In this document: positions 6,489-34,112 of the stretch, one piece after another
How the letters are laid out: the number at the start of each line of letters is the position of its first letter
Numbering within the stretch: the stretch's first letter is position 1
Source of the DNA: Bacteroidales bacterium
GTDB taxonomy: Bacteria; Bacteroidota; Bacteroidia; Bacteroidales; UBA7960
NCBI GenBank assembly: GCA_007122745.1
Contig: SKTA01000071.1
Span: forward strand, 1-36,157
Direction: 5' to 3'
DNA: 36,157 bases
Notes under the pieces: generated by a model
The model's input: only the letters and a program-made list of their open reading frames with translations
What the model was told of the DNA's origin: nothing
Database searches by the model: none
Program-made: the position numbers and the translations under genes

Positions 6489-8150
6489 TTACTGCTTCTT
6501 CACGGTTTTATCAGAAAAGTATCCCTCCATTTGCTGACGGAATTCAGCCATGGTCATGTCATACTTTGGTGTCATACTTTTCTTTTCCGGGAAATTTTCC
6601 ATGTGCAGTGTGCTGGTTGGGAATGCAAAGCGCACACCCAGTTGTTCAGCAAGACGAACGATCTCAATCAACACTTCATGACGCGTCTTTAGCTCTTCCG
6701 GCCAGGTTGGCACGGCAAAAAAGATATAAAACATGATCCTTAGGGAAAAGTCCCCCATCTCATTAAATTCAACGATATAGAAATCCTTGCGTGTTTTGGG
6801 ATGGTTATCCACAATTTTCCGCAAGCCATCAACGAAAACCTCAATCAGATCCGGAGGCGTGTCATACGTGATGGAGATATGCATGAAAAAGCGACGGAAT
6901 TCCCTGAGTCCGTGATTATCAATGCTCGAATCTGCAAGTATGCCGTTAGGAACATAGTGAAGGGAGTTTCTGAAAGTGCGGATCCGTGTTGAACGGAAGC
7001 CAACATCCTCGACTGTGCCGTCGATCTCGCGGCAGGTAATCCAGTGTCCGACTGAAAAAGGCTTGTCGATAAAGATCATCACTGATCCAAACAGGTTTTT
7101 GAGCGTGTCCTGGGCCGCCAAAGCCAAAGCCAATCCACCAATGGATAGCCCTGCAAGCAGCGCGGTGATGTTGATATTCAGGTTTTGCAGGATAAACAGA
7201 CCACCGATAATGACAACAAAAACCTTCAGCACTTTGCGCAGCAAAGGCACAATATGATTGTCCAGACTTGAATCGGACTTGCCGGCCAACTTTTCGAGAT
7301 ATAGTGCAAAGACATCTACCAGCTTGTAAAACATCAAAGTGGCAAAAAAGGGAAGGATCGCCTTGAAGGCAATTGTAAAATACCTGCTTACTTCAACGGG
7401 AAGTTGCAGTAAAGGAAACATCACCATCACAAACACAAAAACAATAAAAAGGCTTAACGGTCTGGCAACAGGCAGCAAATAAGGCCTTATAAGACTGTCG
7501 TAACCCATTTGTTTTGCCCCTTTGTATAATGCACGGTTAAGGAGAAATGTCAAAAGCTTGTGAATAAGAAAACTCAAAAGGATCAGTAAGAGAATGCCCA
7601 GATGTTGCCAGAGGTACAAACCGATAAAGGTGTGTGTTCCTGCCTGTGGCAATATATTAACCAAAAGGTCGGGGCCAAACGGGAACACCTCGCGGTGGAG
7701 GCGATCAATGGCAGCAATGCTCTTCTGGCTGTATAGCCAAAGGTTGTCTTGTTTTACCAGGTATATTTCAGGCAGATGATGCGTTGGTGTGTATTCCTGT
7801 CGATCGCTAACCGTGTCCACGTAATTTGCTTCCCGAGGCGCTTTGTCCAAATCAATGAAATATCCTTTTCCATCATAAACCTGTTTAAGCTTGATGGCAT
7901 ACTCTTCGGCCTCTTCAGGGGTTAGTCCGGGTTGGAAAAACGGCAACGCCGCATTCCCCGGTTCGTAGTCGGTGGGCTGAAGAAAATGCAAGTGGGTGCG
8001 CAAACTGTGATAGGGCGTGCTCACATCCGGACGGATCCCCTCCTCTGCAAATGGGCGATCTGTTGTTTGGTTTTCAGAAGATAAAACGGGTGAAAAACCA
8101 ATCATCAGACAGTAAACAATCAACAAAAATTGCTTTAAATGTTTTTTCAT
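6489..8150 (-). CDS. Mechanosensitive ion channel, MscS family (large form with an N-terminal periplasmic domain)
   Basis: LKNLFGSVMIFIDKPFSVGHWI...DGTVEDVGFRSTRIRTFRNSLHYVPNGILADSSIDNHG is a canonical MscS TM3/beta-domain signature. I place the start at the ATG at 8150 (MKKHLKQFLLIVYCLMIGFSPVLS signal-like N-terminus), not at the track start of 8201. Confidence 0.9.
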   Translation of the reverse strand: MKKHLKQFLLIVYCLMIGFSPVLSSENQTTDRPFAEEGIRPDVSTPYHSLRTHLHFLQPTDYEPGNAALPFFQPGLTPEEAEEYAIKLKQVYDGKGYFIDLDKAPREANYVDTVSDRQEYTPTHHLPEIYLVKQDNLWLYSQKSIAAIDRLHREVFPFGPDLLVNILPQAGTHTFIGLYLWQHLGILLLILLSFLIHKLLTFLLNRALYKGAKQMGYDSLIRPYLLPVARPLSLFIVFVFVMVMFPLLQLPVEVSRYFTIAFKAILPFFATLMFYKLVDVFALYLEKLAGKSDSSLDNHIVPLLRKVLKVFVVIIGGLFILQNLNINITALLAGLSIGGLALALAAQDTLKNLFGSVMIFIDKPFSVGHWITCREIDGTVEDVGFRSTRIRTFRNSLHYVPNGILADSSIDNHGLREFRRFFMHISITYDTPPDLIEVFVDGLRKIVDNHPKTRKDFYIVEFNEMGDFSLRIMFYIFFAVPTWPEELKTRHEVLIEIVRLAEQLGVRFAFPTSTLHMENFPEKKSMTPKYDMTMAEFRQQMEGYFSDKTVKKQ

Positions 8151-8202
8151 AACAAGACTTTTTTGATGTTGTCGTAAAAATACAGAATCCTGCAAGCACA
8201 TA

Positions 8203-8210
8203 CAAACATA
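8203..8210 (-). promoter_or_regulatory. Candidate -7 box TATGTTTG (minus strand) for the MscS gene
   Basis: The reverse complement of caaacata at 8203-8210 is an exact TAnnTTTG match. It lies about 50 nt upstream of the ATG at 8150 and downstream of the track's 8201 start, which supports the shorter gene model. Confidence 0.35.
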
Positions 8211-8228
8211 TTTTAAAAAGTTTTATCT

Positions 8229-11200
8229 TTGGATGAATTACAAAACCTGAAAAGCGTGGGAAAAGCTAAAAAGTTTGGTGCTTTTGGCGGCGTTTATGTT
8301 CCGTCTTTGTTATCTATTCTTGGAGTTATATTGTTTCTTCGCCTGCCGTGGATTGTGGGGATGGCAGGACTTTGGTCAACCCTTGGGATCATCCTTGTTG
8401 CCCATGTCATCTCCATCACGACCGGATTAAGCATTTCATCGCTTGCCACCGACAAACGGGTTGAGACCGGTGGGGCCTATTTCATCATATCACGCAGCCT
8501 TGGTCTTCCGATTGGCGGAACACTGGGACTGGCACTTTTTGTTGGTTTTTCCTTTAGCATCAGCTTGTACCTGATTGGTTTTGCTGAAACCTTTCTCTCA
8601 TACTTTGGCTTCGAACAAAGTCTATACACCATCAGGATCACCGGTTCAGTAATATTGTTGCTGGTAACAATTGTAACCTTTATAAGCACGTCTTTTGCAA
8701 TAAGGGTTCAATACCTGATTCTGGCAATTTTAGCGCTGTCTTTATTGTCAGTATTTGCCGGAAGCCATGGCCTTCATCCTGTTGATTCACTGGTAAGACC
8801 AATGGAAGGAGCGATGCCATGGATTGTGTTGTTTGCCATATTTTTTCCGGCGGTTACAGGTTTCAACACCGGTGTATCGATGTCGGGTGACCTGAAAAAC
8901 CCACAAAATGCCATTCCTGTTGGCACAATCCTGGCCATTTTAACCGGTTTGGTTGTTTATGTTGGGCTGGCAGTATTCTTATTTTATACCGTTGACAGAA
9001 ACCTGTTGGTTAATGACCCCAATGTGTTGTTTGCGATCTCCTGGGTTCCGCAACTGGTTGTTGCAGGAATTTTTGCTGCCACATTATCATCGGCACTTGG
9101 CAGCATTATGGGAGCGCCAAGGATACTCAGGGCGGTAGCCATTGACCGGATCCTGCCCGGCTTTTTTTCGCGCGGATACGGATCTGCTGACGAGCCACGC
9201 AACGCCCTCATTTTAACCTACCTGATTGCACAGGCTGGGATACTCATAGGGGAATTGAACGTCATAGCCCGCATTGTAACGATTTTCTTTATCATCACTT
9301 ACGGTTTTCTGAACATTACCTATGTTGCGGAAAGCTGGGCCAGCAGCGATTTTCGACCAACATTCAGAATTCCCCGTTTCGTTGGTATCATAGGCGCCAT
9401 GGCAAGCATCGTGGTCATGATACAGCTTGATGTTTTGGCGCTTATTGTTGCCTCTGTTTTGCTTATAATACTGTTCCTTTACCTGAAGCGGAAAGAGCTT
9501 TCATTGCAAAGCGGAGATACCTGGACCGGCATCTGGTCATCACTCGTGAAAACCGGTTTGGGGAGGCTGAACAAAAGTACCCGGATGGCACGCAACTGGC
9601 GTCCGAATGTGATGCTGTTCAGTGGTGGAGAAAAACACAGACCACACCTTATAGAGATGGGTAAGTCGCTGGTGGGAAAGTTAGGTGTGTTTACCAACTT
9701 TGAACTGACAGAGCAGCCTTCCGGGGAGATCCTGTTTGGTCTAAAAGAAGTGCCAAGGCTTGCAGAAAGAAGGCAAGACCAGGGTGTTTTCACGCGAAAA
9801 CATACCTGTCGTGATATATATGAAGGGATTGATGTGATATCCAGGGTTTATGGGTTTACCGGATTTGAACCCAATACGATTCTTATGGGATGGGGAAGAA
9901 ATACCAGGAACCCGGAGAAGTTTGTCAAGCTATTGAACAACCTGAAACGTCAGGATTATAACAACTTGTTTCTAAGCTATGATAAAGATAAGGGGTTTGG
10001 TAAGAAACGACAGATCGATTTTTGGTGGAGCGGCAAAGGGAGATCACTCTCGCTGGTGCTCTCCTTGATGAAGTTTCTTACTTCAGGGAATGTATGGAGA
10101 GCTGCCAGCTTCCGGATTTTTGTGGTTCACTCCGATAGTTCAAAAACAGACCCACTCTACAGCCTTATCAACCAACTTCTGGACAACCACAGGCTGAAGG
10201 CCGATGTCAAAGTCATTAACAATGCCGTCGAACAGCTTCCCGCGGAAAAGATCATCCGCGCCGAATCACGGGAGTCCGATCTTTGTATCATAGAGCTGCC
10301 GGAGTTTAACTCCAAAGATCCTGAAGAGGTTTTACAAAAGGCAAACCTGCTTATTGACAGTGTGACGACTGCCCTTCTTGTTTCTGCATCCACCTTCTTT
10401 GATGAAATAAATATCATTGATGAAAAACACCCCCCTGAACCGGAGGAAGGGTTCGAAGTAAAAGAGCGCGCCACTTTCGATGTGGTCAGTTATCTTCAGC
10501 CATCATCAAGGGAGATCATCACGAATGAGGTGGTCAATATTGCACAGACAGCCGGTAAGTTTGCCCTGAAATATTATGAAAAAGGTCCGGAAAGAATTCA
10601 CAGGCTCGATTTACGCTTCTTTCCTGAGCTGCTAAACTTCACCCTGAAGACCATTGACACATTGCAGCGTTCAGTGAGTAGTTCGAAAAGTGCTGACCGC
10701 GATAAAAACTTCCTCGTCATTCTGAATGACTTTTCCTTTCACTCCCAGCGGCATATCCACATGTTGCGCGAACAAAGGGTGCAGACCATTCAGCAACACC
10801 TTGAAGAGGCGAATGCGAGCTATCTTGATGAACTTCGTGCAATGATCAACGTGATGCCGGAGTACATCAGGATCAAACTTTCGGGGAAGGAATTTGCCAT
10901 TAAGGAACACGACCGTTTCAGAACCCGCTTTTATAAAACAAGAAAAAGACTGTTGTCTGCCATTTTAAGAAGGCCTGTAACACACAAAATCCGCGTAACA
11001 CCTTCAGCCCGATACTTTTTATACCACAAGCGAATTCAGCTTATTCATGAGCTGATGGTTGATTTTGCGCTGCATTCCTTCATGGAGGTGGTTGAAGTGG
11101 GCAAACTTTTCAATGCCATCCACGAACTTATAGAAAAGGTTAGACTGGAAGGGAATAACAAGGCGAAAGGGCTTGAAATGATCAAGCTTGAACGGAATCG

Positions 11201-13409
11201 TCTTGCTGCCAAAGTGGATGTCATGGAGCAAGGCAACAGAAACTTTTACTTACAAGCAGGGCAAAAGATGCACGAAGCGCTTTTGAATGACATTCAAGAG
11301 TTTAGCCACAACCTGGAAAGTACCGGGGCCAACATTTTAAGCCGCAATTTTTATCCATATTTCAAAAAAGACCCTGCCATCGTTGCAGAAATTGAGCGTT
11401 TTGCAGCTGTTTGGTCAAAAAACCTTTCCCTTTTTATCAATAAAGCGATTATTGATTATTACATACTTTCGATCAAAAGCCGCATCCAATCCAAAATAAA
11501 AAAATACAATTACGAATTTCAGCTACTCCTGAATAGTGAGCTGATCCGTCATCTTGATGATTTTGAGCGCCTTGTTCAGCAGCTGCTTGCAGATAAAGAG
11601 GCTGGACTTTCCAAAACACCCCGTTTGGAGCATGAACACCTGAAAGCGATTCCCGTTGCCGAAGTATATAATGAACTTTATTCTGAGATAGGAGAGTTGC
11701 TGAATGATATTCCCGATAAAATGGAGGTAACCGCTGAACAATTGGGGGAAAAGTTTAAAGAAACCGCTTTCACTGAGGCTGAACGCTTGATGGTCAGCTT
11801 AAGAAAAACTGTTGAGTATTATGTCAGCACAGAGCTCATCGATTTCAGCAACAAGAAATGTCTGGACATCGAACAGGAATTAAAACAGCATCTTGTTTCT
11901 GTAAAGGACATGGTGCGTTTGCTAAACTTCAGTCTGGACAACCGGGGCAAGGATGATGCGGCTGCTGAACAGGCCGACCGTGACCGTCAGGCCCTGGTTT
12001 TGATCCAATCATTTATGGACAAGCTGGTGTTTGAAAGGCAGCAAATTCTACAACTTGCAGAAAGTGTTGAAAGGGCATTTGCTACCGGGCTGAAGCAAAG
12101 CTTTGACCCGCTGTCCTCCGCTACAATCAATAAAACAAGCCTTGCCGTGAGGAAGAAGTCAAGGGAGGCTGAACAGTCAGAATTTTCCGGTAGTCTGCAA
12201 CGCCAGTGGCAACGTCTCAGAGAAATAACCCGCGATCGTTTTGTGGATCTTTTATACAGTAAAAGCGAAGGGCAGCTATGGATCAGCCATTTTGAGCAAC
12301 CAGAGGTCACATTGAATAACTCCAATAGGGATATTCTGGCTTTTGCCGAGACCATTACGCCAGACCCGACGATCATAAAAGAATTACCATTCTATTACAC
12401 TTCACTTTTTTCCGGACAGTCCGGAACAGGTGATGATTTTTGGGTTGGAATGAATGCAGAGATTCAGGCCTGTGTGCAGGCAATCCAGCGGTTTAAGGCA
12501 GGCTTTCCAGGGGCATTGCTTATCACCGGCGCCCGCACCTCCGGAAAGTCAAGCCTTTCAAAAAAAGTGGCGGAACGCTTTTTCAGCATGGAGCATATTC
12601 ACTCCGTTCAGGCACCCCAGGATTGTTCTGCTGATGCTGATCTGTTTGTGCTTAAACTACTTGACTCATTGAATGCGAGAAACAAACGGATAGAGGATGT
12701 GTTCAGGGCGATGCCTGCCGGGAAAGTGATCATTATTCATGATCTGGGACTGTGGTGGGAACGTCGTCCCGGTGGTAACCTGGTGGTGGAAACAATCCTG
12801 AATCTGATTGACCGTTATGGACATAAGTGCCTGTTCATTATCAATGTGAACGCTTATGCATTCAACCTGATTGACAAACAAACAAGGCTAAGCAGTTATG
12901 CGCTGGCAACTGTGCAATGTGAACCTTTTGACGCCAGGGAGCTAAAAGAGATGATCATGCTCAGACATCAGGCAGGCGGACTGAAGTTTCAAATTCACAA
13001 AAAAGAGGAGAGCCGTATGACGGCATGGGACTTTGCCCGCCTTTTCAACCGGCTCTTTGATCAATCGAACGGCAATCCCGGACTGGCAGCCAGACTCTGG
13101 CTCTCTTCCATCAAAAAGGTTTCAGGAAAAACCATTGTGTTGGATTCTTTTAAATTACCTGATAAAAAGGTTTTTGATGCGCTCACCCCCGGACAATGGT
13201 TTTACATCCAACAGTTTTTATACAATCGGCGATTCACAGTTGGTAAGCTGGCAAAAAACCTTGAGCGAACAGAGGCTGATGTGAACAGGGATATTCGTGA
13301 ACTTATGCGCACCGGTATTTTTGTTGAAAGGTTTGAGGGTGTTTTTGCCATAAGGTCGGGGTTGGACCTTTATCTTGCAGAACAATTAAAAAATAAAAAG
13401 AGATTATGA
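8229..13409 (+). CDS. Giant fusion protein: SLC12/cation-chloride-cotransporter-like APC permease, SLC12-type cytosolic C-terminal domain, about 650 aa of helical region, then a STAND/ORC-like P-loop ATPase with a winged-helix tail
   Basis: Uninterrupted 5,181-nt ORF. The N-terminus KFGAFGGVYVPSLLSILGVILFLRLPWIVG and roughly a dozen hydrophobic segments span aa 1-420. NWRPNVMLFSGG, FEPNTILMGWG, DFWWSGKGRSLSL and CIIELPEF fall in aa ~455-725. Walker A is GARTSGKS (aa 1434-1441). Walker-B-like is KVIIIHDLG. A GxP-like NGNPGLAARLW follows. The C-terminal wHTH-like segment is FTVGKLAKNLERTEADVNRDIRELMRTGIF. The start is uncertain, either TTG 8229 or GTG 8256. A TATCTTTG -7-like box at 8224-8231 favours 8256. 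Confidence 0.85.
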   Translation: MDELQNLKSVGKAKKFGAFGGVYVPSLLSILGVILFLRLPWIVGMAGLWSTLGIILVAHVISITTGLSISSLATDKRVETGGAYFIISRSLGLPIGGTLGLALFVGFSFSISLYLIGFAETFLSYFGFEQSLYTIRITGSVILLLVTIVTFISTSFAIRVQYLILAILALSLLSVFAGSHGLHPVDSLVRPMEGAMPWIVLFAIFFPAVTGFNTGVSMSGDLKNPQNAIPVGTILAILTGLVVYVGLAVFLFYTVDRNLLVNDPNVLFAISWVPQLVVAGIFAATLSSALGSIMGAPRILRAVAIDRILPGFFSRGYGSADEPRNALILTYLIAQAGILIGELNVIARIVTIFFIITYGFLNITYVAESWASSDFRPTFRIPRFVGIIGAMASIVVMIQLDVLALIVASVLLIILFLYLKRKELSLQSGDTWTGIWSSLVKTGLGRLNKSTRMARNWRPNVMLFSGGEKHRPHLIEMGKSLVGKLGVFTNFELTEQPSGEILFGLKEVPRLAERRQDQGVFTRKHTCRDIYEGIDVISRVYGFTGFEPNTILMGWGRNTRNPEKFVKLLNNLKRQDYNNLFLSYDKDKGFGKKRQIDFWWSGKGRSLSLVLSLMKFLTSGNVWRAASFRIFVVHSDSSKTDPLYSLINQLLDNHRLKADVKVINNAVEQLPAEKIIRAESRESDLCIIELPEFNSKDPEEVLQKANLLIDSVTTALLVSASTFFDEINIIDEKHPPEPEEGFEVKERATFDVVSYLQPSSREIITNEVVNIAQTAGKFALKYYEKGPERIHRLDLRFFPELLNFTLKTIDTLQRSVSSSKSADRDKNFLVILNDFSFHSQRHIHMLREQRVQTIQQHLEEANASYLDELRAMINVMPEYIRIKLSGKEFAIKEHDRFRTRFYKTRKRLLSAILRRPVTHKIRVTPSARYFLYHKRIQLIHELMVDFALHSFMEVVEVGKLFNAIHELIEKVRLEGNNKAKGLEMIKLERNRLAAKVDVMEQGNRNFYLQAGQKMHEALLNDIQEFSHNLESTGANILSRNFYPYFKKDPAIVAEIERFAAVWSKNLSLFINKAIIDYYILSIKSRIQSKIKKYNYEFQLLLNSELIRHLDDFERLVQQLLADKEAGLSKTPRLEHEHLKAIPVAEVYNELYSEIGELLNDIPDKMEVTAEQLGEKFKETAFTEAERLMVSLRKTVEYYVSTELIDFSNKKCLDIEQELKQHLVSVKDMVRLLNFSLDNRGKDDAAAEQADRDRQALVLIQSFMDKLVFERQQILQLAESVERAFATGLKQSFDPLSSATINKTSLAVRKKSREAEQSEFSGSLQRQWQRLREITRDRFVDLLYSKSEGQLWISHFEQPEVTLNNSNRDILAFAETITPDPTIIKELPFYYTSLFSGQSGTGDDFWVGMNAEIQACVQAIQRFKAGFPGALLITGARTSGKSSLSKKVAERFFSMEHIHSVQAPQDCSADADLFVLKLLDSLNARNKRIEDVFRAMPAGKVIIIHDLGLWWERRPGGNLVVETILNLIDRYGHKCLFIINVNAYAFNLIDKQTRLSSYALATVQCEPFDARELKEMIMLRHQAGGLKFQIHKKEESRMTAWDFARLFNRLFDQSNGNPGLAARLWLSSIKKVSGKTIVLDSFKLPDKKVFDALTPGQWFYIQQFLYNRRFTVGKLAKNLERTEADVNRDIRELMRTGIFVERFEGVFAIRSGLDLYLAEQLKNKKRL
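12528..12551 (+). other. Walker A / P-loop (GARTSGKS) of the C-terminal ATPase module
   Basis: The codons ggc gcc cgc acc tcc gga aag tca are in frame with the 8229 ORF (aa 1434-1441) and match GxxxxGK[ST]. Confidence 0.8.
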
Positions 13410-14119
13410 ACCTGTTGATCTTTACCATAACCGGCCTTTTGTTATTGCTGCTTTTCCGGGTACTGAACCGGATCACCAAAGCCTTCATTAGAAAACGGCA
13501 ATTGCGTAGCGTGTTACTGCGAACATTGCCCGTGATCGAACTTGTAGCATGGGTCGCCTTTTTATTCTGGGGTGTATTGGTCCTTTTTGGACAACACCAG
13601 TATTATGACCTGATTGTTGTATTGCTGGCAGTATTGGTTATATTAGGACTGGCGTGGTTTGTGTTTCGTGATTTCCTTGCCGGCGTCCTGTTGAAGTCTG
13701 AAAAAGCATTGCATCCCGGACAGGTCATTAAAACGCCAATCGTTGAAGGGAAGATCAAATCGATGGGATTCCGAAACATAGAACTTATAAATGAAGCCGG
13801 TGAAACTGTCAATATTCCATATTCCAGACTCAGTGATCAGCTTTTCATAATTCCTCCCGATAATGAAGACAGCCTGCCTCATCAGGCAAAGATCACACTT
13901 GAACCCAAACAGGCGACAGAACAAACCAAAGAGAGGGTTTATAAATACCTTATGGCAATGCCATGGGTGATCAGCCCGGCGCCTGGTATACAGATCATAA
14001 AGAACAATGAAGGTCATCATATGATGCATGTTACCTTTTATACTTACATGCGTACACATGCGCTGATTGTTGAGGAAAAGATAAGGACATTTCTGAAGGA
14101 GGACGCCGGAGTTCAATAA
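13406..14119 (+). CDS. Minimal MscS-like mechanosensitive channel protein (3 TM segments, beta domain and C-terminal alpha/beta domain)
   Basis: 237 aa with three N-terminal hydrophobic helices. RDFLAGVLLKSEKALHPGQVIKTPIVEGKIKSMGFRNIELINEAGETVNIPYSRLSDQLFI fits the MscS TM3/beta-domain pattern (..G....e.p...Gd.I.....G.V..i..r.t.l....G..v.iPNs.l). Its ATG overlaps the upstream stop as ATGA at 13406-13409. Confidence 0.7.
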   Translation: MNLLIFTITGLLLLLLFRVLNRITKAFIRKRQLRSVLLRTLPVIELVAWVAFLFWGVLVLFGQHQYYDLIVVLLAVLVILGLAWFVFRDFLAGVLLKSEKALHPGQVIKTPIVEGKIKSMGFRNIELINEAGETVNIPYSRLSDQLFIIPPDNEDSLPHQAKITLEPKQATEQTKERVYKYLMAMPWVISPAPGIQIIKNNEGHHMMHVTFYTYMRTHALIVEEKIRTFLKEDAGVQ

Positions 14120-14130
14120 AGCACTTCTGT

Positions 14131-15105
14131 TTAACTATTTCTGTTAACGGTGAACTCAATGAGCTGTTCGAGAGAGTGGCGGCCCGGACTTTCCGGTAGT
14201 TCGAGGAGCAAACGCAAGGCCTCTGACTTAAAGGCGTTCATCCGTTCGGTGGCATATTCAATTCCCCCTTTGTCATAAACCATTTCGATAAGGGAAGCTA
14301 CTTTCTGATCATTATGACTGTGGCTTTTGACGCTATTAATGATCCTGCGCCTTTCAATGTAGGATGAATTGTTGATCAGGTATATCAGGGGAAGTGTCAT
14401 TTTTCGCTCTTTGATGTCGGTGCCCGTGGGTTTCCCTTTGGTGGAGCCTGCATCAAAATCAAGAATATCATCTTTGATCTGGAAGGCAATTCCTGCCTGT
14501 TCACCAATTAGGTGCATTTTTTTGATCTCCTCAGGGGATGCTCCGGTTGATGCAGCACCACACGACAGACATGAGGAGATCAGAGATGCGGTTTTTTTGC
14601 GAATGATCTCCAGATAAACATCTTCGCCAATATCAAGGCTGCGTGCCTTTTCTATCTGCATCAGCTCCCCTTCACTCATTTCGCGGACAGACTCGGTAAC
14701 GATCTGAAGCAGATCAAAATCATTATGATCCAGACTGAGCAATAGTCCCCTGGAGAGCAGGTAATCACCAACAAGAACTGAAATTTTGTTTTTCCACAAT
14801 GCATTCAGAGAAAAGAAACCCCTGCGTTCATTGGAATCGTCAACCACATCGTCGTGGATCAGCGTTGCGGTATGCAGCAATTCAATAAGTGTAGCAGCAC
14901 GATAAGTGCGCTCAGATATCTCACCGAAAATTCCTGCTGAAAAAAAGACATACAGCGGTCGTATTTGCTTTCCCTTACGCTTTACAATGTATCGGGTGAT
15001 CTTGTCAAGCAGTCCAACCTCACTTTTCAAAGACGCTTTAAATCGTGCTTCAAAGTTTTTAATGTGTGCTTCAACCGGCTCTTTTATTTGTTTCAGTGTG
15101 GTCAT
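14131..15105 (-). CDS. ispB: Long-chain polyprenyl diphosphate synthase (octaprenyl/solanesyl type)
   Basis: 324 aa with a first Asp-rich motif LIHDDVVDDSNERRG and a second, FQIKDDILDF. A small residue (Ala) at position -5 from the first DDxxD is typical of long-chain enzymes. Confidence 0.88.
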   Translation of the reverse strand: MTTLKQIKEPVEAHIKNFEARFKASLKSEVGLLDKITRYIVKRKGKQIRPLYVFFSAGIFGEISERTYRAATLIELLHTATLIHDDVVDDSNERRGFFSLNALWKNKISVLVGDYLLSRGLLLSLDHNDFDLLQIVTESVREMSEGELMQIEKARSLDIGEDVYLEIIRKKTASLISSCLSCGAASTGASPEEIKKMHLIGEQAGIAFQIKDDILDFDAGSTKGKPTGTDIKERKMTLPLIYLINNSSYIERRRIINSVKSHSHNDQKVASLIEMVYDKGGIEYATERMNAFKSEALRLLLELPESPGRHSLEQLIEFTVNRNS

Positions 15106-15123
15106 ATGCGAATGGTTCCTGCT

Positions 15124-15131
15124 GCAAACTT
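15124..15131 (-). promoter_or_regulatory. Candidate -7 box TAAGTTTG (minus strand) for ispB
   Basis: The reverse complement of caaactta is an exact TAnnTTTG match about 18 nt upstream of the ATG at 15105. Confidence 0.3.
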
Positions 15132-15206
15132 AGTTGTTCTTGCTTACATAATAAAACAAACTGTTATGCTTTTTGTTGCAATCACCCCGAAACAAGTTAT
15201 CTTTTC

Positions 15207-16733
15207 TTATGGTCGCAACCTGATGCGATCTGCAACAATGCTTGAAATTTTCTCTACAGGAATCCTTTCCTGTTGCATTGTGTCCCTTTCCCTGATAGTT
15301 ACGGTGTTGTCTTCAAGAGTTTGATGATCGATGGTGATGCAGTAGGGTGTTCCTATGGCATCCTGCCTGCGGTAGCGTCTTCCAATCGCATCTTTATCTT
15401 CATACTGACAAAGAAAATCGTATTTAAGGGTGTCAAATATCTCTCTGCCCTTTTCCGGAAGGCCGTCTTTTTTCATCAACGGCAATACAGCCACTTTTAT
15501 AGGCGCAAGTGCCGGTGTTATGTTCATGACAACGCGCTGACTGCCATCTTCCAGTGTTTCTTCGTTGTAGGCATGGCTAACGATGGCAAGGAACATGCGG
15601 TCAAGACCAATGGATGTTTCTACCACATAGGGCACATAACTTTCGTTGGTTTCGGGGTCAAAATATTGTAACTTTTTGCCCGAGTGCTTTTGGTGTGCGC
15701 CGAGGTCAAAGTCGGTGCGGGAGTGCACACCTTCCAGTTCCCTGAACCCAAAGGGAAACTCAAACTCAATGTCAACGGCAGCATTGGCGTAGTGTGCCAG
15801 TTTTTCGTGTTCGTGAACCCTAAAGTGTTTGGTCGGAATTCCAAGTGCCAGATGCCACTTCATCCGCTCCTCCTTCCAGTATTCATACCATTCTTTTTCT
15901 TCTCCCGGCCGAACAAAAAACTGCATTTCCATCTGTTCAAACTCACGCATCCTGAAGACAAACTGACGGGCAACGATCTCGTTGCGAAACGCTTTTCCGA
16001 TTTGTGCAATCCCAAAGGGAAGCTTTTTTCTGCCGGTTTTCTGAACATTCAGGTAGTTAACAAAAATGCCCTGGGCCGTTTCCGGGCGCAGATAGACCTG
16101 GGAAGCACCGTCGTTCAAAGACCCCATCTGGGAACTGAACATGAGGTTAAACTGGCGCACATCGGTCCAGTTGCGGGAACCTGAAACCGGACAGGCAATG
16201 CCCAGCTCTTCGATCAGGGCCTTGATTTCGCCAAGGCGATCCGCTTCAAGTGCCTTTACAAAACGCTTATTTATGTCTGCGATCTTTTCAATATTTGCCA
16301 GAACCCGTGGGTTTGTTTTGCGAAACATCGCCTCATCAAAAGTGTCTCCAAAACGTTTTTCCGCTTTCCGAACCTCTTTTTCAATCTTTTCTTCCAGCTT
16401 GGCGACATGCTCTTCGATCAGAACATCGGCGCGGTATCTTTTCTTGGAGTCCTTGTTGTCGATTAAAGGATCGTTGAAAGCATCAACGTGTCCGGAAGCT
16501 TTCCAAACAGCCGGATGCATGAATATTGCCGCATCAATACCAACAATATCCTCATGATATTGCACCATCGATTTCCACCAGTAATCCTTGATGTTATTCT
16601 TTAATTCAGCACCATTCTGACCATAGTCATAAACAGCACTTAATCCGTCATAGATCTCACTCGATTGAAAAATAAAACCGTATTCTTTACAGTGTGCGAT
16701 AATCTTTTTAAAACGGTCTTCTGTGTTAGCCAT
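15207..16733 (-). CDS. glyQS: Glycine--tRNA ligase (homodimeric alpha2 class II type)
   Basis: 508 aa. The N-terminus FKKIIAHCKEYGFIFQSSEIYDGLSAVYDYGQNGAELKNNIKDYWW and the blocks YLRPETAQGIFVNY, FRNEI and GLDR are characteristic. Confidence 0.95.
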   Translation of the reverse strand: MANTEDRFKKIIAHCKEYGFIFQSSEIYDGLSAVYDYGQNGAELKNNIKDYWWKSMVQYHEDIVGIDAAIFMHPAVWKASGHVDAFNDPLIDNKDSKKRYRADVLIEEHVAKLEEKIEKEVRKAEKRFGDTFDEAMFRKTNPRVLANIEKIADINKRFVKALEADRLGEIKALIEELGIACPVSGSRNWTDVRQFNLMFSSQMGSLNDGASQVYLRPETAQGIFVNYLNVQKTGRKKLPFGIAQIGKAFRNEIVARQFVFRMREFEQMEMQFFVRPGEEKEWYEYWKEERMKWHLALGIPTKHFRVHEHEKLAHYANAAVDIEFEFPFGFRELEGVHSRTDFDLGAHQKHSGKKLQYFDPETNESYVPYVVETSIGLDRMFLAIVSHAYNEETLEDGSQRVVMNITPALAPIKVAVLPLMKKDGLPEKGREIFDTLKYDFLCQYEDKDAIGRRYRRQDAIGTPYCITIDHQTLEDNTVTIRERDTMQQERIPVEKISSIVADRIRLRP

Positions 16734-28428: not shown

Positions 28429-30048
28429 ATGAAAACTCCGGCATTTTTTTACCAGGATCCTTTTCCAACGGGTGCTGACGAAACCAACTACTATCTGCTG
28501 ACCAAAGATCATGTCTCTACTGAGCAAGTCCTTGGCAAAACCATGCTAAAGGTCGACAAGGAGGGGCTTGAAAAACTTGCCCAGACTGCATTGCGTGACG
28601 CATCTTTTATGCTGCGCACAGAACATATCAAGCAGGTCGCTGCGATTCTGGATGACCCCAAAGCCAGCGAAAATGATAAATATGTGGCATTAACGATGTT
28701 GCGTAATGCTGAAATATCTGCAAAAGGCGTGCTTCCGTTTTGTCAGGATACCGGTACGGCAACCATTATCGGAAAAAAGGGACAGCAGGTATGGACTGGG
28801 GGTGGCGATTCTGAGGCACTTTCAAAAGGGGTTTACAATTTGTTTACTGAAGAAAACCTGCGTTATTCGCAAACCATCCCATTGGATATGTACAAAGAGA
28901 AAAACTCCGGAACAAACCTGCCTGCACAAATTGATCTTTATGCGACGGATGGTTCTGAATACCAGTTCTTGTTTGTTGCAAAAGGGGGTGGGTCCGCAAA
29001 CAAAACCGCTCTCTACCAACAAACCAAAGCATTGCTGAACCCTGAAAAACTGGAGGCCTTTCTTGTCGACAAGTTGAAGTCGCTTGGAACAGCCGCCTGT
29101 CCGCCATACCATGTCGCCTTTGTTGTCGGAGGTACTTCTGCTGAAGCAACACTGAAAACCGTTAAGCTGGCTTCTGCGAAGTACCTGGACAATCTGCCGG
29201 ATTTGGGGAATGAGCATGGCCAGGCATTCCGCGACAGGGAGATGGAGCAAAAAGTCCTGAAAGCTGCCTATAACCTGGGTATTGGTGCTCAGTTTGGAGG
29301 TAAATATTTTGCTTTGGATATCAGGGTAATCCGGTTGCCACGCCATGGAGCTTCCTGTCCGGTAGGAATGGGTGTTTCCTGTGCGGCAGACAGAAACATC
29401 AGGGCAAAAATCAACAAGGATGGTCTTTGGGTTGAAAAACTTGAAGACAACCCGGGACGTTTCATTCCAGAAGAACTTCGCACGGTGGATGATGCAGCAG
29501 GTGCTGTTGAAATCAACCTGGATCAGTCGATGGAGGCAATTCTTGCTGAACTTACAAAGCATCCTGTAGGCACCCGCCTTTCATTGAATGGCACCATCGT
29601 TGTCGGCCGCGATATTGCCCACGCAAAACTGAAAGAACGGCTTGATGAAGGTGAGGGTCTCCCCGAATACATCATAAACCATCCCATCTATTATGCCGGA
29701 CCGGCAAAAACACCGGAAGGAATGCCTTCTGGTTCTTTTGGACCGACCACTGCCGGACGCATGGACTCTTATGTTGATCTATTTCAGCAGCACGGCGGCA
29801 GCAAGGTGATGATTGCAAAAGGAAACCGCAGTCAGGCTGTTACGGATGCCTGCAAAAAATATGGTGGCTTTTACCTTGGCAGCATTGGCGGTCCGGCTGC
29901 CATCCTTGCACAGGAGAACATCAGAAACGTTGAATTACTTGAGTATCCGGAATTTGGGATGGAGGCCATTTACAGGATCCATGTTGAAAAGTTTCCAGCC
30001 TTCATTCTGGTGGATGATAAGGGCAATGACTTCTACAGCATAATCTGA
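28429..30048 (+). CDS. Class I (Fe-S dependent) fumarate hydratase, single-polypeptide FumA/FumB type
   Basis: 539 aa. [15 protein letters not shown] and the C-terminal beta-type domain ([14 protein letters not shown]...YYAGPA...GPTTAGRMD) are characteristic. Confidence 0.92.
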
Positions 30049-30081
30049 TACCACTGAACATCTTGAGTGAAATGCTTGTTT

Positions 30082-30105
30082 ACCCCGGTAGTTTGCCGGG
30101 GTTTT
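30082..30105 (+). terminator. Rho-independent terminator between the two fumarase genes
   Basis: ACCCCGG (30082-30088) pairs with CCGGGGT (30096-30102) around a 7-nt loop and is followed by TTTT. Confidence 0.65.
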
Positions 30106-30168
30106 CATTTATTTGCGGCATCCATCATCAGAATATCCTGAAAAACATTGATAACCAAATTCAAAACC

Positions 30169-31548
30169 ATGTACAGAAGAGAACACGACAGCCTTGGGCC
30201 GGTTCAGGTTCCGGCTGATAAATACTGGGGTGCTCAGACCCAGCGGTCGCTGGAGAATTTTCGCATTGGCAGGGAAAAAATGCCCACAGAGATAATTCGC
30301 GCATTTGCACTTTTAAAAAAGGCTGCTGCCATTGTCAATAATAGGATGGGGATACTGGATATCCGTCTGTTAAACCCCGTTATTCAGGCTTGTGATGAAA
30401 TTCTTGAAGGCAAAATGGACGATCATTTTCCCCTGGTTGTATGGCAAACAGGCAGCGGCACCCAAAGCAACATGAATCTGAATGAGGTGATCGCCAACCG
30501 GGCACACGAACTGATGGGTGGCAGCCTCGCTGACAATAAAAAGGAAGTACATCCCAACGACCATGTCAACAAATCCCAATCGTCAAATGACACTTTCCCC
30601 ACGGCAATGCACATTGCAGCGTACACCCTGATTGAGGAACAAACGTTGCCTGCTCTGATAGAGATGAAACAAGCCTTACAGGAACGTTCGAATACATTTC
30701 AGGACGTGGTGAAAATTGGCCGCACACATTTGATGGATGCCACGCCGCTTACCCTGGGACAAGAGTTCTCTGCATTTGCTGCACAATTGGAGTATGGGAT
30801 AAAGGACCTGCAGCATAGTCTGGATCATTTGCGGGAACTTGCTCTTGGTGGCACAGCTGTTGGAACCGGGATCAATGCACCCAAGGGCTTTGATAAAGCT
30901 GTTGCGAATGTGATCGCGGATTTGACACAAAAACCTTTCATAACTGCGCCCAATAAATTTGAAGCGCTCTCGGCACATGATGCAGTTGTTGCAAGCAGTG
31001 GTGCTTTAAAAACAATTGCTGTATCCCTGATGAAAATAGCCAACGATATTCGTTTGCTGGCATCTGGTCCGCGTTGCGGCATCGGGGAGATCACACTTCC
31101 TGCCAATGAACCCGGTAGTTCAATTATGCCAGGAAAGGTCAACCCTACTCAGGCTGAAGCATTGACGATGGTCGCTGCCCAGGTGATCGGCAATGATCTG
31201 GCCATAACCACAGGCGGGATGAACGGGCACTTTCAGCTAAATGTGTTCAAGCCCATGATGATTTATAACCTTTTGCAATCGGCGCAATTGATTGCGGATG
31301 CCTGTAACAGCTTTACTGATAAATGTGTTGTGGGTATAAAAGCCAACAGGGAACAGATCAGTAAGCATCTGCAAAACTCGCTGATGCTGGTAACAGCGCT
31401 AAATACGCACATAGGCTACGACAAGGCAGCAAAAATTGCAAAGAAAGCTTATGAAGAAAACATCAGTTTAAGGGAGGCGGCACTTGGTCTTGGACTTGTG
31501 TCAGGAGAGGACTTCGAGCGTTGGGTCAATCCGACGGACATGTTATAA
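30169..31548 (+). CDS. fumC: Class II fumarate hydratase
   Basis: The [13 protein letters not shown] signature is present. The N-terminus [31 protein letters not shown] aligns with the FumC N-terminus as I remember it. I therefore use the ATG at 30169 rather than the track's TTG at 30148. Confidence 0.95.
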
Positions 31549-31589: not shown

Positions 31590-32453
31590 TCAATAGTGCC
31601 AGAGATCAATTTCCATGTTCCTGATCCTTTCCTTGATCCTTTCTGCTTCAAGCAGCCGTTCTACAGGATCTTCAATATATTCGCTGATAACCCTGTTGTC
31701 GGGTCTGTCTTCCCTGTAGATTGTAGCATTGAAGAAACGACGAATAAATATATCGTCAAATGACATTAGCTGGCTGCTGTTATGCACATTATAAACAGGC
31801 GCTATGGCTAATATCGGTCTGGCTTCCTCAAAGGGGATCCAAAAGAGTGGCTCCTGTACGTTTGTCAATTGACCGGTTACCTCATCTCTGTCAAGCATGG
31901 CAGGTGATAAACCTATAATTCGCACATCCAGCTTGCCTCTTCTTTTATCTATAAACCATTCCTCTTTAATTCTGATAATATAGACATCTGTGGTTGAGAA
32001 GGGTACCATTTCAGTAATTTCCACACCTTCAACAACATAAGTGAAGGGTCTTGCCAGGTCTTCAAACAACCTTTCAGGATCCAGTGGTTCTTCCTGAAAG
32101 CTTTCGTCATCAATGCCATATGCCCTGATCTCACCGGCAAGGATCGCCTCCTTCAAAATCTGCATCAGGCTTTTGTAGTCACCGGAGGGGGTTTCCGGAA
32201 AATAAAGAACCTGGTTCATCCTTTCGCGAAGGTCAATCCGCTGCCATACCCTGAGTGACCAAATGACGTCTGCCTCCCTTACATAAGGGAGTTCTATCGG
32301 CCCCCTTTCATGAATCGCCCTTCTTTCATAAAAACCGTCTCTTGGAGGTGGCGGAGCTTCTTCCGGGACAACCTGGCCATGAGCCTGCGGGATCATTAGC
32401 ATACTTATAATGGGCAATAATATCAAAAACTTTATCATATGGATATCCTCCAT
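31590..32453 (-). CDS. gldN: Gliding motility / T9SS protein GldN
   Basis: 287 aa with a signal peptide (IKFLILLPIISMLMIPQAHGQ). It is the last gene of the conserved gldKLMN order. An alternative ATG lies at 32438. Confidence 0.88.
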   Translation of the reverse strand: MEDIHMIKFLILLPIISMLMIPQAHGQVVPEEAPPPPRDGFYERRAIHERGPIELPYVREADVIWSLRVWQRIDLRERMNQVLYFPETPSGDYKSLMQILKEAILAGEIRAYGIDDESFQEEPLDPERLFEDLARPFTYVVEGVEITEMVPFSTTDVYIIRIKEEWFIDKRRGKLDVRIIGLSPAMLDRDEVTGQLTNVQEPLFWIPFEEARPILAIAPVYNVHNSSQLMSFDDIFIRRFFNATIYREDRPDNRVISEYIEDPVERLLEAERIKERIRNMEIDLWHY

Positions 32454-32466
32454 GGATTAAAAATGA

Positions 32467-34050
32467 TTACTCGATTGTAAAAGACAGGGCGCCGAGGTTT
32501 CTTTCTCTTCCATCAGGGCCAGGTCGTGTTATAATATCTGTAAATGTAACGGATTGTCCGCTTCTCGCATTATTAATCAGTAAAACCATTTCGCTGGTCA
32601 GGGTGTTGCCGCTTTCCTGCCTTTCCCGTCTGATCTCCCCGGCTCTTTCGGTAATCATTTCGAAGCGAGCCACCTCATACCGCAGGTCAAACACAAAGTC
32701 TTCTGCCATTCTTGCTTCGATAATGGTTTGTGGTCTTGTAAGAAGCTGCCGTGGGATCCTTCCGCTCCTTTGGCCTGCAATGTAGGCGGTCGGGTCTGGG
32801 TTTCTTAGCACCCTGAATGGTGTTACAGCCATGGTTTCCAAACGGTCGCCAACCCGGGCCCTTACTGTAATGTTTACTTCGCGGACTTCAGGATCTACAT
32901 TTACGATGTAGCTTCCGTCTCTTTGTCTTGTCAGGGTACCTCCTCTTGATATTTCCGGAACCAGGTTTTCGCTTGGAACGCCGCTTGCTGCAATGGATAC
33001 AGGGTTTTCGAGGCCGGCATAGAAAACATTCATTCTTGTGGGTGATACTGTTGCCATTGGAGATTCAACAGTATATTGTGTTCTGAAGGGGTGAGACGTT
33101 TCGACGCCGGCTGGCGATCTTACTACGATCCTGCCATTAACGGTATGTGTGCCGGCAGATCTTGCTGCAAGCCGCAGGCGGCCTATGCCGTCGCTAACAG
33201 GTATTCTGCCGATACCATCAACGAAAACTTCAGGGTCCTGGCGTGTATCGATGGCGGCCACAAAAACATCCGCTTCAAACTGCCCTCCCTGCATAACGAT
33301 TCTGCTCTCCGGAACGATCCTTGCGCTTACTTCATCAAAACGGAACTGTCCGGCGTGGATCAGGTCATAAAGCATGCTGATTGCATCGAACTGTGCGTTG
33401 CGTATCTCTGTGACCATCCGGCTCAGGTTTGTTGCCACGGCAACGGAAATGACACGTTCAAAATTGTATGTTTGCCAGTCGACACTGGAGCCTCCTCTGT
33501 CGAATGGGCCATCTGTATCGAGTCCAAGCTTAACGCTTTGGTTGTGTAATGCAAGGATACTGTCAATCTCAGATTTAAAGTTTTCTATCATTGTCCTGAG
33601 TGTGTGCGCGCGGGTGCCGGTGCCACCGGAATAACCACCCTCCTCCATCCAGAACCTTGTCGACCGACTGTAATTGTCTTTCTGCCTCAGGTCGATCAGG
33701 TCAAGTGTATCTGCTTCTTCAAAATCTATGTTGTTCAACATGGCAATCATAAGTGTTCTGTTGGTCATAACGTAACTGACCATGGAGTCTGCAAGCTCTT
33801 TAACATAGAGGGCTTGCCCATGATAAGGAAATACATGTTCTTCGGAAAAGTTTTGCACCTGTGCATTGAAGTCATCATAGATCATATCCACCTTCATCTC
33901 AAAATTTTGATTGGTCTCCTGGATACCCCTGTCAATCAAAGGGAATGAATCAAGGACCTCCACAGACACGTTGAGGGCCATCAGTGCAAGGAAGATCAGA
34001 TACATCAGTCCGATCAGTTTTTGTCTGGGGGTTTGTTTTCCTCCTGCCAT
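32467..34050 (-). CDS. gldM: Gliding motility / T9SS protein GldM
   Basis: 527 aa. The N-terminus MAGGKQTPRQKLIGLMYLIFLALMALNVS is the hallmark GldM single TM helix, followed by a long periplasmic region. Confidence 0.93.
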   Translation of the reverse strand: MAGGKQTPRQKLIGLMYLIFLALMALNVSVEVLDSFPLIDRGIQETNQNFEMKVDMIYDDFNAQVQNFSEEHVFPYHGQALYVKELADSMVSYVMTNRTLMIAMLNNIDFEEADTLDLIDLRQKDNYSRSTRFWMEEGGYSGGTGTRAHTLRTMIENFKSEIDSILALHNQSVKLGLDTDGPFDRGGSSVDWQTYNFERVISVAVATNLSRMVTEIRNAQFDAISMLYDLIHAGQFRFDEVSARIVPESRIVMQGGQFEADVFVAAIDTRQDPEVFVDGIGRIPVSDGIGRLRLAARSAGTHTVNGRIVVRSPAGVETSHPFRTQYTVESPMATVSPTRMNVFYAGLENPVSIAASGVPSENLVPEISRGGTLTRQRDGSYIVNVDPEVREVNITVRARVGDRLETMAVTPFRVLRNPDPTAYIAGQRSGRIPRQLLTRPQTIIEARMAEDFVFDLRYEVARFEMITERAGEIRRERQESGNTLTSEMVLLINNARSGQSVTFTDIITRPGPDGRERNLGALSFTIE

Positions 34051-34112
34051 AATTTGGGTTGTATCTTAAGTCAAAAGCTGTTACTAATAATATAGATTAA
34101 TTAGCCCAATGA

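Follow-up and report, generated by a model that had tools for sequence, protein, structure and literature searches.

The 36,157-nucleotide (nt) window analysed here, positions 1 to 36,157 of contig SKTA01000071.1 from the Bacteroidales bacterium assembly GCA_007122745.1, carries a gene whose product joins a cation-chloride cotransporter (CCC, SLC12 family) to a long all-helical domain and a predicted AAA+ ATPase module ending in a winged helix, and this gene is followed by an overlapping gene for a compact channel of the MscS family. The fusion, its linkage to the MscS-family gene and the nucleotide-binding residues of the module are conserved among its relatives. We propose, with moderate confidence, that the two genes, accompanied here by a third, divergent MscS-family gene, form an operon for ion and osmotic (turgor) homeostasis. 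The first gene would supply an electroneutral cation-chloride cotransporter acting as a salt importer, and the second a compact MscS-type mechanosensitive channel acting as a release valve for solutes. The cytosolic domain of the transporter would lead through a flexible linker into a rigid helical arm of ~590 residues and on to the ORC/Cdc6-like AAA+ module, which would serve as a nucleotide-dependent conformational or oligomerisation switch and not as a motor. Through the helical arm the module would determine how active the MscS-like channel and the attached transporter are, with salt uptake and release reciprocally controlled within one complex.

The features of the locus are listed below. 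Residue numbers are counted from position 8229, as in an original prediction made from the DNA letters of this window; subtracting 9 gives the numbering of the corrected 1,717-residue protein.

8256..13409, + strand: corrected coding sequence of the fusion gene, with a GTG start, 1,717 amino acids (aa) and the N-terminus MGKAKKFGAFGG
8292..9488, + strand: CCC/SLC12 transmembrane domain (LeuT fold), aa 22-420, matched by Pfam AA_permease
9591..10403, + strand: CCC cytosolic C-terminal domain, aa ~455-725, from TIGR00930, the KCC3 alignment and Pfam SLC12
10404..10511, + strand: acidic, poorly conserved linker, aa ~726-761
10512..12269, + strand: all-helical domain, aa 762-1347, from an AlphaFold2 model
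12243..12281, + strand: motif VxLLYSKSEGxLW, aa 1339-1351, with V1339, Y1343 and S1346 invariant
12426..12923, + strand: predicted AAA+ alpha/beta base, aa 1400-1565, from AlphaFold2, Foldseek and motifs
12924..13148, + strand: predicted AAA+ lid, aa 1566-1640, from AlphaFold2, Foldseek and motif conservation
13161..13406, + strand: predicted C-terminal winged helix, aa 1645-1726, from the helix-helix-helix-strand-strand-helix order in the AlphaFold2 model
13406..14119, + strand: compact MscS-family partner, 237 aa, with three transmembrane helices, a beta domain and an alpha/beta domain, matched by Pfam MS_channel_2nd
6489..8149, - strand: larger divergent MscS-family channel, matched by the Pfam MS_channel 1st, 2nd and 3rd domains and by NCBIfam MscS models
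8224..8231, + strand: candidate -7 promoter box of the operon, TATCTTTG, a motif match that overlaps the listed TTG start

Conservation of the fusion and its MscS-family partner

The fusion gene is a single uninterrupted frame (8229..13409, + strand, 1,726 codons counted from TTG), as had been claimed, and all the peptide motifs originally quoted from it were recovered at the positions given for them. The continuous frame therefore stands, while the length of 1,726 aa does not: the true start is most likely GTG 8256, giving 1,717 aa, because the N-termini of homologues align there and TTG 8229 lies inside a -7 box. Homologues from ten loci begin with a conserved M/V-AKAKKFGAFGG at the column of GTG 8256 and have no conservation upstream of it, and the Bacteroidetes-type box TATCTTTG at 8224-8231 spans the TTG.

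Hundreds of clusters contain the fusion at full length, even where identity in the C-terminal half has dropped to ~22-25%; most of them represent metagenome-assembled Bacteroidales genomes. A word-indexed search found more than 120 clusters (90% identity) which cover 97-100% of the query with proteins of 1,683-1,763 aa at 91-44% identity. The family is large, with 386 representatives at E < 1e-30, 704 at < 1e-10 and 1,495 at < 1e-3 when the C-terminal 997 residues only were searched by HMMER against representatives of 50%-identity clusters. Among the best 150 representatives, 93 are at least 1,600 aa long and the match typically lies at ~740-1715 of proteins of ~1,700 aa; the shorter, seemingly standalone matches are mostly colinear fragments of full-length genes. 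Five distant members with 22-27% identity in the module have an N-terminal AA_permease match in 5/5 and an SLC12 match in 4/5 cases. Scanning the GTDB species-representative genomes gave 80 loci, all from metagenome-assembled genomes (MAGs) of Bacteroidales or Bacteroidia, and by tblastn nearly every fully covered locus is one open frame of ~1,700 aa (frame-disrupted loci: L044, L079, L083, L084 and L088). Locus L009 (P0212) was rejected as a candidate free module, being a frame-disrupted fused gene, and L090 has a degraded CCC upstream of the module. In the source databases these proteins are named ‘amino acid permease’, ‘amino acid transporter’, ‘hypothetical protein’, ‘AAA family ATPase’ or similar.

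An assembly chimera or a frameshift uniting two unrelated genes would also give such a protein. The unusual length is the only point in favour of this explanation, to which we give practically no credence and which we rejected: the same continuous frame is found in independent ENA, NCBI, JGI and Logan assemblies, the guanine plus cytosine (GC) content is even along the gene (0.43-0.47) and every segment of the protein is conserved. A chimera is excluded because the full-length frame recurs both in the protein clusters and in the GTDB loci.

The partner gene was absent from the original account of the locus. Its ATG overlaps the stop codon of the fusion gene (ATGA), and its product matches Pfam MS_channel_2nd at 8e-8 (32.7 bits against a cutoff of 20.2). 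A profile built from 11 partners aligns to residues 30-248 of E. coli MscS, covering transmembrane segments 1 to 3 (TM1-3), the beta domain and the alpha/beta domain, with E 1.4e-10. Homologues of the partner lie directly downstream of the fusion gene in loci at 44%, 48% and 56% identity and in nearly all of the genome loci; such a gene is directly downstream in ~85 loci. The 4-nt overlap between start and stop codons occurs in 59/85 loci, which points to translational coupling of the kind typical of subunits made in fixed proportion. Judged from these alignments and this gene order, the partner is a real MscS homologue which is obligatorily linked to the module.

The larger MscS-family gene upstream was listed as an open reading frame extending to 8201; its likely start is ATG 8149, which gives 553 aa, and the homologue in L003 has 554 aa. 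It has a -7 box of its own (TATGTTTG, 8203-8210, minus strand) and is also present in the soda-lake clade. The MscS gene found immediately upstream of the fusion in L001 and L067 is shorter and runs in the same direction. The operon has additional MscS genes next to it in the window, L001, L003 and L067.

The intergenic region from 8149 to 8256 is a compact divergent promoter region with back-to-back -7 boxes, TATGTTTG on the minus strand and TATCTTTG on the plus strand. Over the whole window the TAnnTTTG motif is no more frequent than chance predicts (26 seen against 27 expected), and a match by itself was dropped as promoter evidence. The weight of the promoter claim comes from positional conservation across orthologues only: in 35/58 non-redundant orthologous upstream regions a TAnnTTTG box begins 45 to 25 nt 5' of the start codon, and the motif is rare at other positions of these regions. 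Seven loci (L037, L038, L039, L040, L043, L045 and L048) have a palindrome, TTTGGGT-AA-ACCCAAA, over the -7 box, ~20-40 nt 5' of the start. The sequence flanking this palindrome diverges; it is specific to that clade and missing from the clade of the window, and it could be an operator or a hairpin in the 5' untranslated region.

Some loci have the same parts in separate genes. Locus L008, from a Sandaracinaceae MAG, has three abutting genes for a CCC-like permease (815 aa), the helical domain with the AAA+ module (883 aa) and an MscS-like protein (262 aa), and L091 has the same order (782, 891 and 236 aa); the split in these loci falls at the junction which the original prediction had identified. 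The Cyclobacteriaceae loci L005 and L006 encode a 986-aa module with an overlapping 234-aa partner (29% identity to that of the window, E 7e-25) and no CCC, and L007 has a similar arrangement. These free modules contain no hydrophobic segment and would therefore be soluble. In L005 (1391-2659, - strand) and L006 (750-2018, - strand) a Na+/H+ exchanger gene divergently adjoins the module, and an association with a cation transporter may thus persist without fusion in these CCC-less Cyclobacteriaceae. The invariant core across the loci is the module together with the MscS-like channel, with the CCC usually fused, sometimes adjacent and occasionally absent.

The persistence of this core without the CCC, the translational coupling of its two genes and the scaffold-like appearance of a long rigid helical domain would all suit a module dedicated to assembling, anchoring or controlling the quality of the MscS-like heptamer, for instance as a cytoskeleton-like scaffold which places the channel, with the CCC fused for co-localisation only. 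We consider this unlikely. The CCC has long stayed fused and strongly conserved, in hundreds of clusters that include some with modules just 22-25% identical, and it remains linked in the operon where the gene is split; we also know of no chaperone role for AAA+ proteins of the ORC/Cdc6 type.

Two further observations concern individual loci. Two or three distinct copies of the fusion with its partner are present per MAG in JAWOHT01 (L063, L064 and L075) and CAYLYP01 (L060 and L087), which could be paralogues or mixed strains in the bin. In the split operon of L008 the MscS-like gene is followed directly by a gene for a Ser/Thr protein kinase (8907-10193, - strand), and in the GC-rich locus L009 another such kinase gene (14415-15414, + strand) comes ~4 kb after the MscS-like gene; this proximity may be a coincidence of kinase-rich genomes.

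The transporter part and the helical domain

By sequence comparison, the N-terminal ~700 residues do form an SLC12/CCC transporter, complete with the cytosolic C-terminal domain. The permease assigned to aa 1-420 was borne out by Pfam AA_permease (1e-43), by the TIGR00930 model of K-Cl cotransporters (2.9e-114, with the best stretch at aa 270-678) and by CCC structures. The TIGR00930 match falls under the full-length, eukaryote-tuned cutoff of that model because the extracellular loops and the N-terminus are missing. Compared with solved structures, the first 730 residues match KCC3, KCC1, KCC4, NKCC1 and NCC at E 1e-75 to 1e-61, with KCC3, KCC1 and NKCC1 at 1e-75 to 1e-71 and reaching ~aa 690, while amino-acid transporter structures match this part at ~1e-9 at best. 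The alignment to KCC3 extends through the cytosolic domain to aa ~688, and Pfam SLC12, which matches the query weakly (19.8 bits, cutoff 27), is above its cutoff in the relatives P0148, P0213 and P0262; the identification of aa ~455-725 as the SLC12 cytosolic domain was therefore upheld.

Several residues which would coordinate ions are kept in the query according to the alignments: the Tyr of GGAYF (TM3) and the Pro and Thr of FFPAVTG (TM6), which from published CCC structures we take to form the K+ site, and GVI (TM1) and the Tyr of FFIITYG (TM10), which we take to form the Cl- site. TM8 reads AGIFAATLSSALGS (AATLSSAL) here and AGIFSATLSSALAS in NKCC1, with TLSSAL identical in both, and KCC3 has STCGAGLQS at this place. 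The best match of the TM8 segment is NKCC1 (5e-12), followed by NCC (1e-7) and the KCCs (1e-6); for the segment TM1-3 the KCCs match best. As TM8, with its TLSSAL, best matches NKCC1, the transporter is probably NKCC-like and would perform electroneutral, Na+/K+-coupled uptake of Cl-.

The linker (aa ~726-761) has the lowest conservation of the protein (0.34), and in the AlphaFold2 model of the helical domain its residues (model residues 1-15) have a predicted local distance difference test score (pLDDT) below 50. The helical domain itself, modelled from a 41-sequence alignment, reached a pLDDT of 82 and a predicted template-modelling score (pTM) of 0.69. The model consists of ten helices, seven of them 47-74 residues long, plus a few short strands, in line with the earlier description of aa ~750-1400 as helical and without a recognised motif. 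No Pfam or NCBIfam family matched the domain, comparison of sub-segments with one another by hhalign found no internal repeats, and the best Foldseek match in the PDB had an E value of only 0.12; we regarded the matches to a pyrophosphatase, SmhA, the ZorA tail and BAR domains, none of them better than this, as noise. On the evidence of this model and these searches the ~590-residue domain is new, matching no solved structure or Pfam family. The motif VxLLYSKSEGxLW closes its last long helix, at a point where the pLDDT falls below 50 (model residues 613-637), and may be a docking or phosphorylation motif.

The AAA+ module and its winged helix

The C-terminus is predicted to be an AAA+ base, lid and winged helix whose nearest structural relatives are archaeal Orc1/Cdc6, RuvB and RFC, and the P-loop ATPase with ORC/Cdc6-like character and a terminal winged helix which the original prediction had proposed was thereby confirmed at the level of the model. 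AlphaFold2 resolved these three parts in aa 1390-1726 with a pLDDT of 90.2 and a pTM of 0.87. Foldseek returned 404 PDB matches at E < 1e-3, the top ones being archaeal Cdc6/Orc1 (2qby, 2.5e-8), RuvB, eukaryotic ORC subunits, Aeropyrum ORC2 and RFC, with E values of 2.5e-8 to 1e-6 and template-modelling scores of ~0.45-0.5. The alignments cover base, lid and winged helix and ~340-390 columns of Orc1/Cdc6. We based the fold assignment on AlphaFold2 and Foldseek because sequence and profile searches gave little: a single-sequence search of the ATPase region against the PDB returned nothing useful, and a profile search returned weak winged-helix and P-loop matches only. The query lies under all curated Pfam and NCBIfam cutoffs for this region (AAA_16: 21.5-23.3 bits against 32.6). 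AAA_16 was matched by 16/16 relatives tested (best 2.8e-8), most of which also match AAA_14, AAA_22 and nSTAND3 and seven of which match ATPase_2; curated cutoffs were passed by some, including P0235 (35.5 bits on AAA_16) and P0265 (42.3 bits on AAA_22).

Conservation of the motif residues was counted over 244 family members:

G1434 (Walker A): Gly in 239/244
G1439 (Walker A): Gly in 242/244
K1440 (Walker A; K1431 in the corrected numbering): Lys in 231/244 and Arg in 8 others
D1505 (Walker B): Asp in 235/244
W1509 and W1510 (after Walker B): Trp in 239/244 each
R1512: Arg in 228/244
G1516: Gly in 243/244
N1541 (sensor 1): Asn in 207/244
R1579 (lid start): Arg in 242/244
H1580 (lid start): His in 239/244
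G1615: Gly in 242/244
G1618 (sensor-2 position): Gly in 239/244
W1624: Trp in 244/244

The base contains FWVGM, a degenerate form of hhGRE, followed by Walker A (G1434-xxxx-G1439-K1440-S) and by Walker B as IIIHD1505-L-G and then WWER. The lid has the ORC/Cdc6-style PFDAREL..IMLR1579-H1580, and GNPG (1615-1618) stands in place of the sensor-2 Arg. The Walker B pattern in the family is hhhhD-L-E, with Glu at the +2 position in 185/244 members and Gly in 43/244, including the window protein and its soda-lake relatives (12741-12749, aa 1505-1507); should E1507 be the catalytic base, the clade with D-L-G may be able to bind ATP but not to hydrolyse it. This pattern of conservation indicates that the nucleotide-binding residues are clearly under strong selection.

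The machinery for hydrolysis appears weak. The Glu immediately after the Walker B Asp is missing, no sensor-2 Arg was found (Gly in 239 of the 244 relatives), and no conserved Arg that might act in trans as an arginine finger was found in alpha-4 or box VII of the 244 relatives, which have the invariant R1579-H1580 at the lid start instead. From the lack of these three features we infer a switch rather than a motor. That the module powers transport directly is unlikely: it lies ~650 residues from the permease, has neither the arginine finger nor the sensor-2 Arg, and in the split operons forms a soluble protein of its own.

The suggestion that the ATPase belongs to the STAND class was not supported. 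STAND proteins have a sensor-1 Arg, an acidic pair in Walker B, a GxP module, a nucleotide-contacting His in the winged helix and C-terminal repeat arrays. Sensor 1 is Asn here, a C-terminal TPR, WD40 or LRR sensor array is absent from the protein (the long helical domain sits N-terminal to the ATPase), and the structural neighbours are AAA+ proteins of the initiator and clamp-loader type, with no STAND protein among the top 50 Foldseek matches. The module does contain a GNPG motif and, in its winged helix, a conserved H/N1666.

A second suggestion, that the winged helix binds DNA, also found no support, and we think such binding unlikely. The mean net charge of the winged helix across the family is about neutral (+0.4), and the exposed positions of the putative recognition helix (aa 1682-1694) vary and are often acidic; these features make DNA binding doubtful. 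Conservation is found mainly in buried hydrophobic residues, plus Q1662, H/N1666, R1668 and E1700.

These observations bear on an explanation in which the protein is a membrane-tethered transcription regulator, a ‘transceptor’ that relays the state of the transporter to the AAA+ module, with the winged helix binding DNA and controlling osmotic-stress genes in the manner of ToxR/CadC or of MalT held by MalK. The winged-helix profile resembles those of ArsR/HlyU/MarR (weakly, E 0.003 to ArsR/HlyU winged helices) and has weak HTH_11 and TrmB matches, the best structural matches of the module (Orc1/Cdc6 and RuvB) bind DNA, the split and free modules are soluble, and one clade has the TTTGGGT-AA-ACCCAAA palindrome across its promoter. 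However, besides the charge and the acidic, variable recognition helix described above, the domain is covalently tied to the membrane in most species, no regulated neighbour is conserved other than the MscS gene and the palindrome is limited to that one clade. We consider transcriptional regulation quite unlikely, and a transceptor function in the broader sense plausible.

Genomic setting, interpretation and known systems

The window is otherwise an ordinary piece of Bacteroidota core genome, with genes for an EncFtn/encapsulin pair, cargo proteins of the type IX secretion system (T9SS), a polyprenyl synthase, a class II aminoacyl-tRNA synthetase, Asd, PheT, fumarases and gldLMN. The order encapsulin, MscS, fusion, mini-MscS, polyprenyl synthase, tRNA synthetase, diacylglycerol kinase and Asd is kept around the 56%-identity orthologue, and the annotated neighbours include no mobile-element genes. 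The encapsulin operon (1574-2739, + strand) is of family 1, with an encapsulated-ferritin-like protein of 120 aa (1574-1936) before the Linocin_M18 shell protein (1e-87, 1948-2739), and is syntenic in L003 and L004. Class I (Fe-S) and class II fumarase genes lie side by side at 28429-31548 (+ strand), followed by gldL, gldM and gldN (T9SS/gliding) at 31590-35006 (- strand).

This setting bears on a possible role in anti-phage defence or abortive infection, in which an NTPase sensor would trigger the channel or transporter and collapse ion gradients. NTPases paired with membrane proteins are common in defence systems, some relatives have weak matches to nSTAND3, nSTAND5, nSTAND6 and BrxC/BrxD, and some MAGs hold 2-3 copies. 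We nevertheless judge a defence role very unlikely: the PADLOC defence models matched none of the module, the partner and the upstream MscS protein, apart from a WYL-like match to the winged helix (E 0.004); core synteny around the locus (encapsulin, polyprenyl synthase, aminoacyl-tRNA synthetase and Asd) is conserved at 56% identity, with no mobile-element genes among its annotated neighbours; the transporter has kept its ion-coordinating residues; the protein has no sensor domain of the repeat type; and the family seems to have been inherited vertically across Bacteroidales.

The nearest relatives of the fusion protein (92, 85, 73 and 67% identity in the ATPase part) come from CSSed and T3Sed MAGs of soda-lake sediment. 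The CSSed MAGs derive from sediment of Cock Soda Lake, with 55 g/L salt and pH 9.9 (PMC6704655). Other members come, according to their MAG labels, from aquifers, digesters and other sediments.

Returning to the homeostasis unit proposed at the outset, the CCC family has an established function in controlling volume and osmotic state. Several points weigh against it. The family is not confined to saline habitats, given its aquifer and digester members. The helical domain, which is one third of the protein, has no assignable function, and in the structural models the closest relatives of the ATPase are DNA-handling proteins and not transporter regulators. Since some loci have the module and no CCC, the transporter may be not its target but an accessory. 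Finally, we know of no prokaryotic CCC with measured transport.

A more specific version, in which the ORC/Cdc6-like AAA+ switch on its helical arm bridges an NKCC-like importer and an MscS valve and sets both reciprocally according to nucleotide and possibly ion or crowding state, is offered only tentatively. If true, it would be the prokaryotic equivalent, in a single complex, of the NKCC/KCC-WNK circuit for volume control in animals, with the first ATPase-regulated MscS channel and the first initiator-type AAA+ module recruited to membrane transport. Animal CCCs are volume regulators and major drug targets; a bacterial CCC with a built-in regulatory machine would be useful for work on mechanism and structure. 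The gating of MscS is attributed to membrane tension alone and we know of no MscS channel paired with an ATPase. An obligatory ATPase partner, if true, would add a new layer of control to these channels. AAA+ modules of the initiator type with a winged helix are known from DNA replication and recombination, and a role in membrane transport would widen their known uses. The parts all belong to known superfamilies (CCC, ORC/Cdc6-type AAA+ and MscS), and it is their combination, together with the helical domain, that is undescribed: full-text searching of the literature found no report of a CCC-AAA+ fusion or a CCC-MscS operon. The original claim that no example of the architecture has been characterised agrees with this search, and its architecture as a whole also stands, with a P-loop fold found and the fusion conserved.

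The transporter part can be compared with eukaryotic NKCC1, NCC and KCC1-4, with which it shares a 12-TM LeuT-fold permease and a cytosolic C-terminal domain, the K+ and Cl- site residues and the NKCC-type TLSSAL in TM8. Unlike them it lacks the long extracellular loop and the regulatory N-terminus and carries ~1,000 additional C-terminal residues (helical domain, AAA+ module and winged helix), and only the bacterial family has an obligatory MscS partner gene. The eukaryotic proteins are controlled by WNK-SPAK/OSR1 phosphorylation, whereas the query has a built-in ATPase. A CCC review (PMC4301019) cites the C-terminal domain of the archaeal MaCCC as the sole X-ray structure to be had, and for that protein only this domain has been solved. 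Compared with E. coli MscS and its paralogues (YnaI, MscK and MscM), the partner aligns over MscS residues 30-248 and the upstream gene of 553-570 aa carries all three MscS Pfam domains; the partner is shorter than E. coli MscS (~235 aa), lacks the C-terminal barrel tail and is dedicated to the AAA+ module.

The predicted module shares with Orc1/Cdc6, RuvB and RFC the order of base, lid and winged helix, the pre-P-loop motif, the PF..EL..IL.R helix after beta-5 and the S-x-G-x-x-x-A..L sensor-2 region, at an identity of merely 11-15%. It differs from them in the invariant Gly (GNPG) for the sensor-2 Arg, in D-L-E/G and the invariant WWER at Walker B, in having no conserved arginine finger and a winged helix that is not basic, and in being joined to or encoded beside membrane transport proteins and not replication genes. 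With STAND NTPases it shares weak and consistent AAA_16, nSTAND3 and ATPase_2 matches, the GxP-like GNPG, a Trp following Walker B and, beyond the helical lid, a winged helix; it differs in the sensor-1 Asn, where STAND proteins have Arg, in the D-L-E/G of Walker B and in having no evident DNA-binding output domain. The concept of a cytosolic nucleotide-binding module which gates ion transport for osmotic adaptation is shared with Trk/Ktr (RCK domains) and Kef, although their fold is unrelated (a Rossmann-type RCK ring against AAA+), the transporter family is another one and they have no helical arm. The activity of MalT is restrained by the maltose transporter subunit MalK, and the system proposed here would share with that pair the idea that the state of a nucleotide switch is tied to a transporter.

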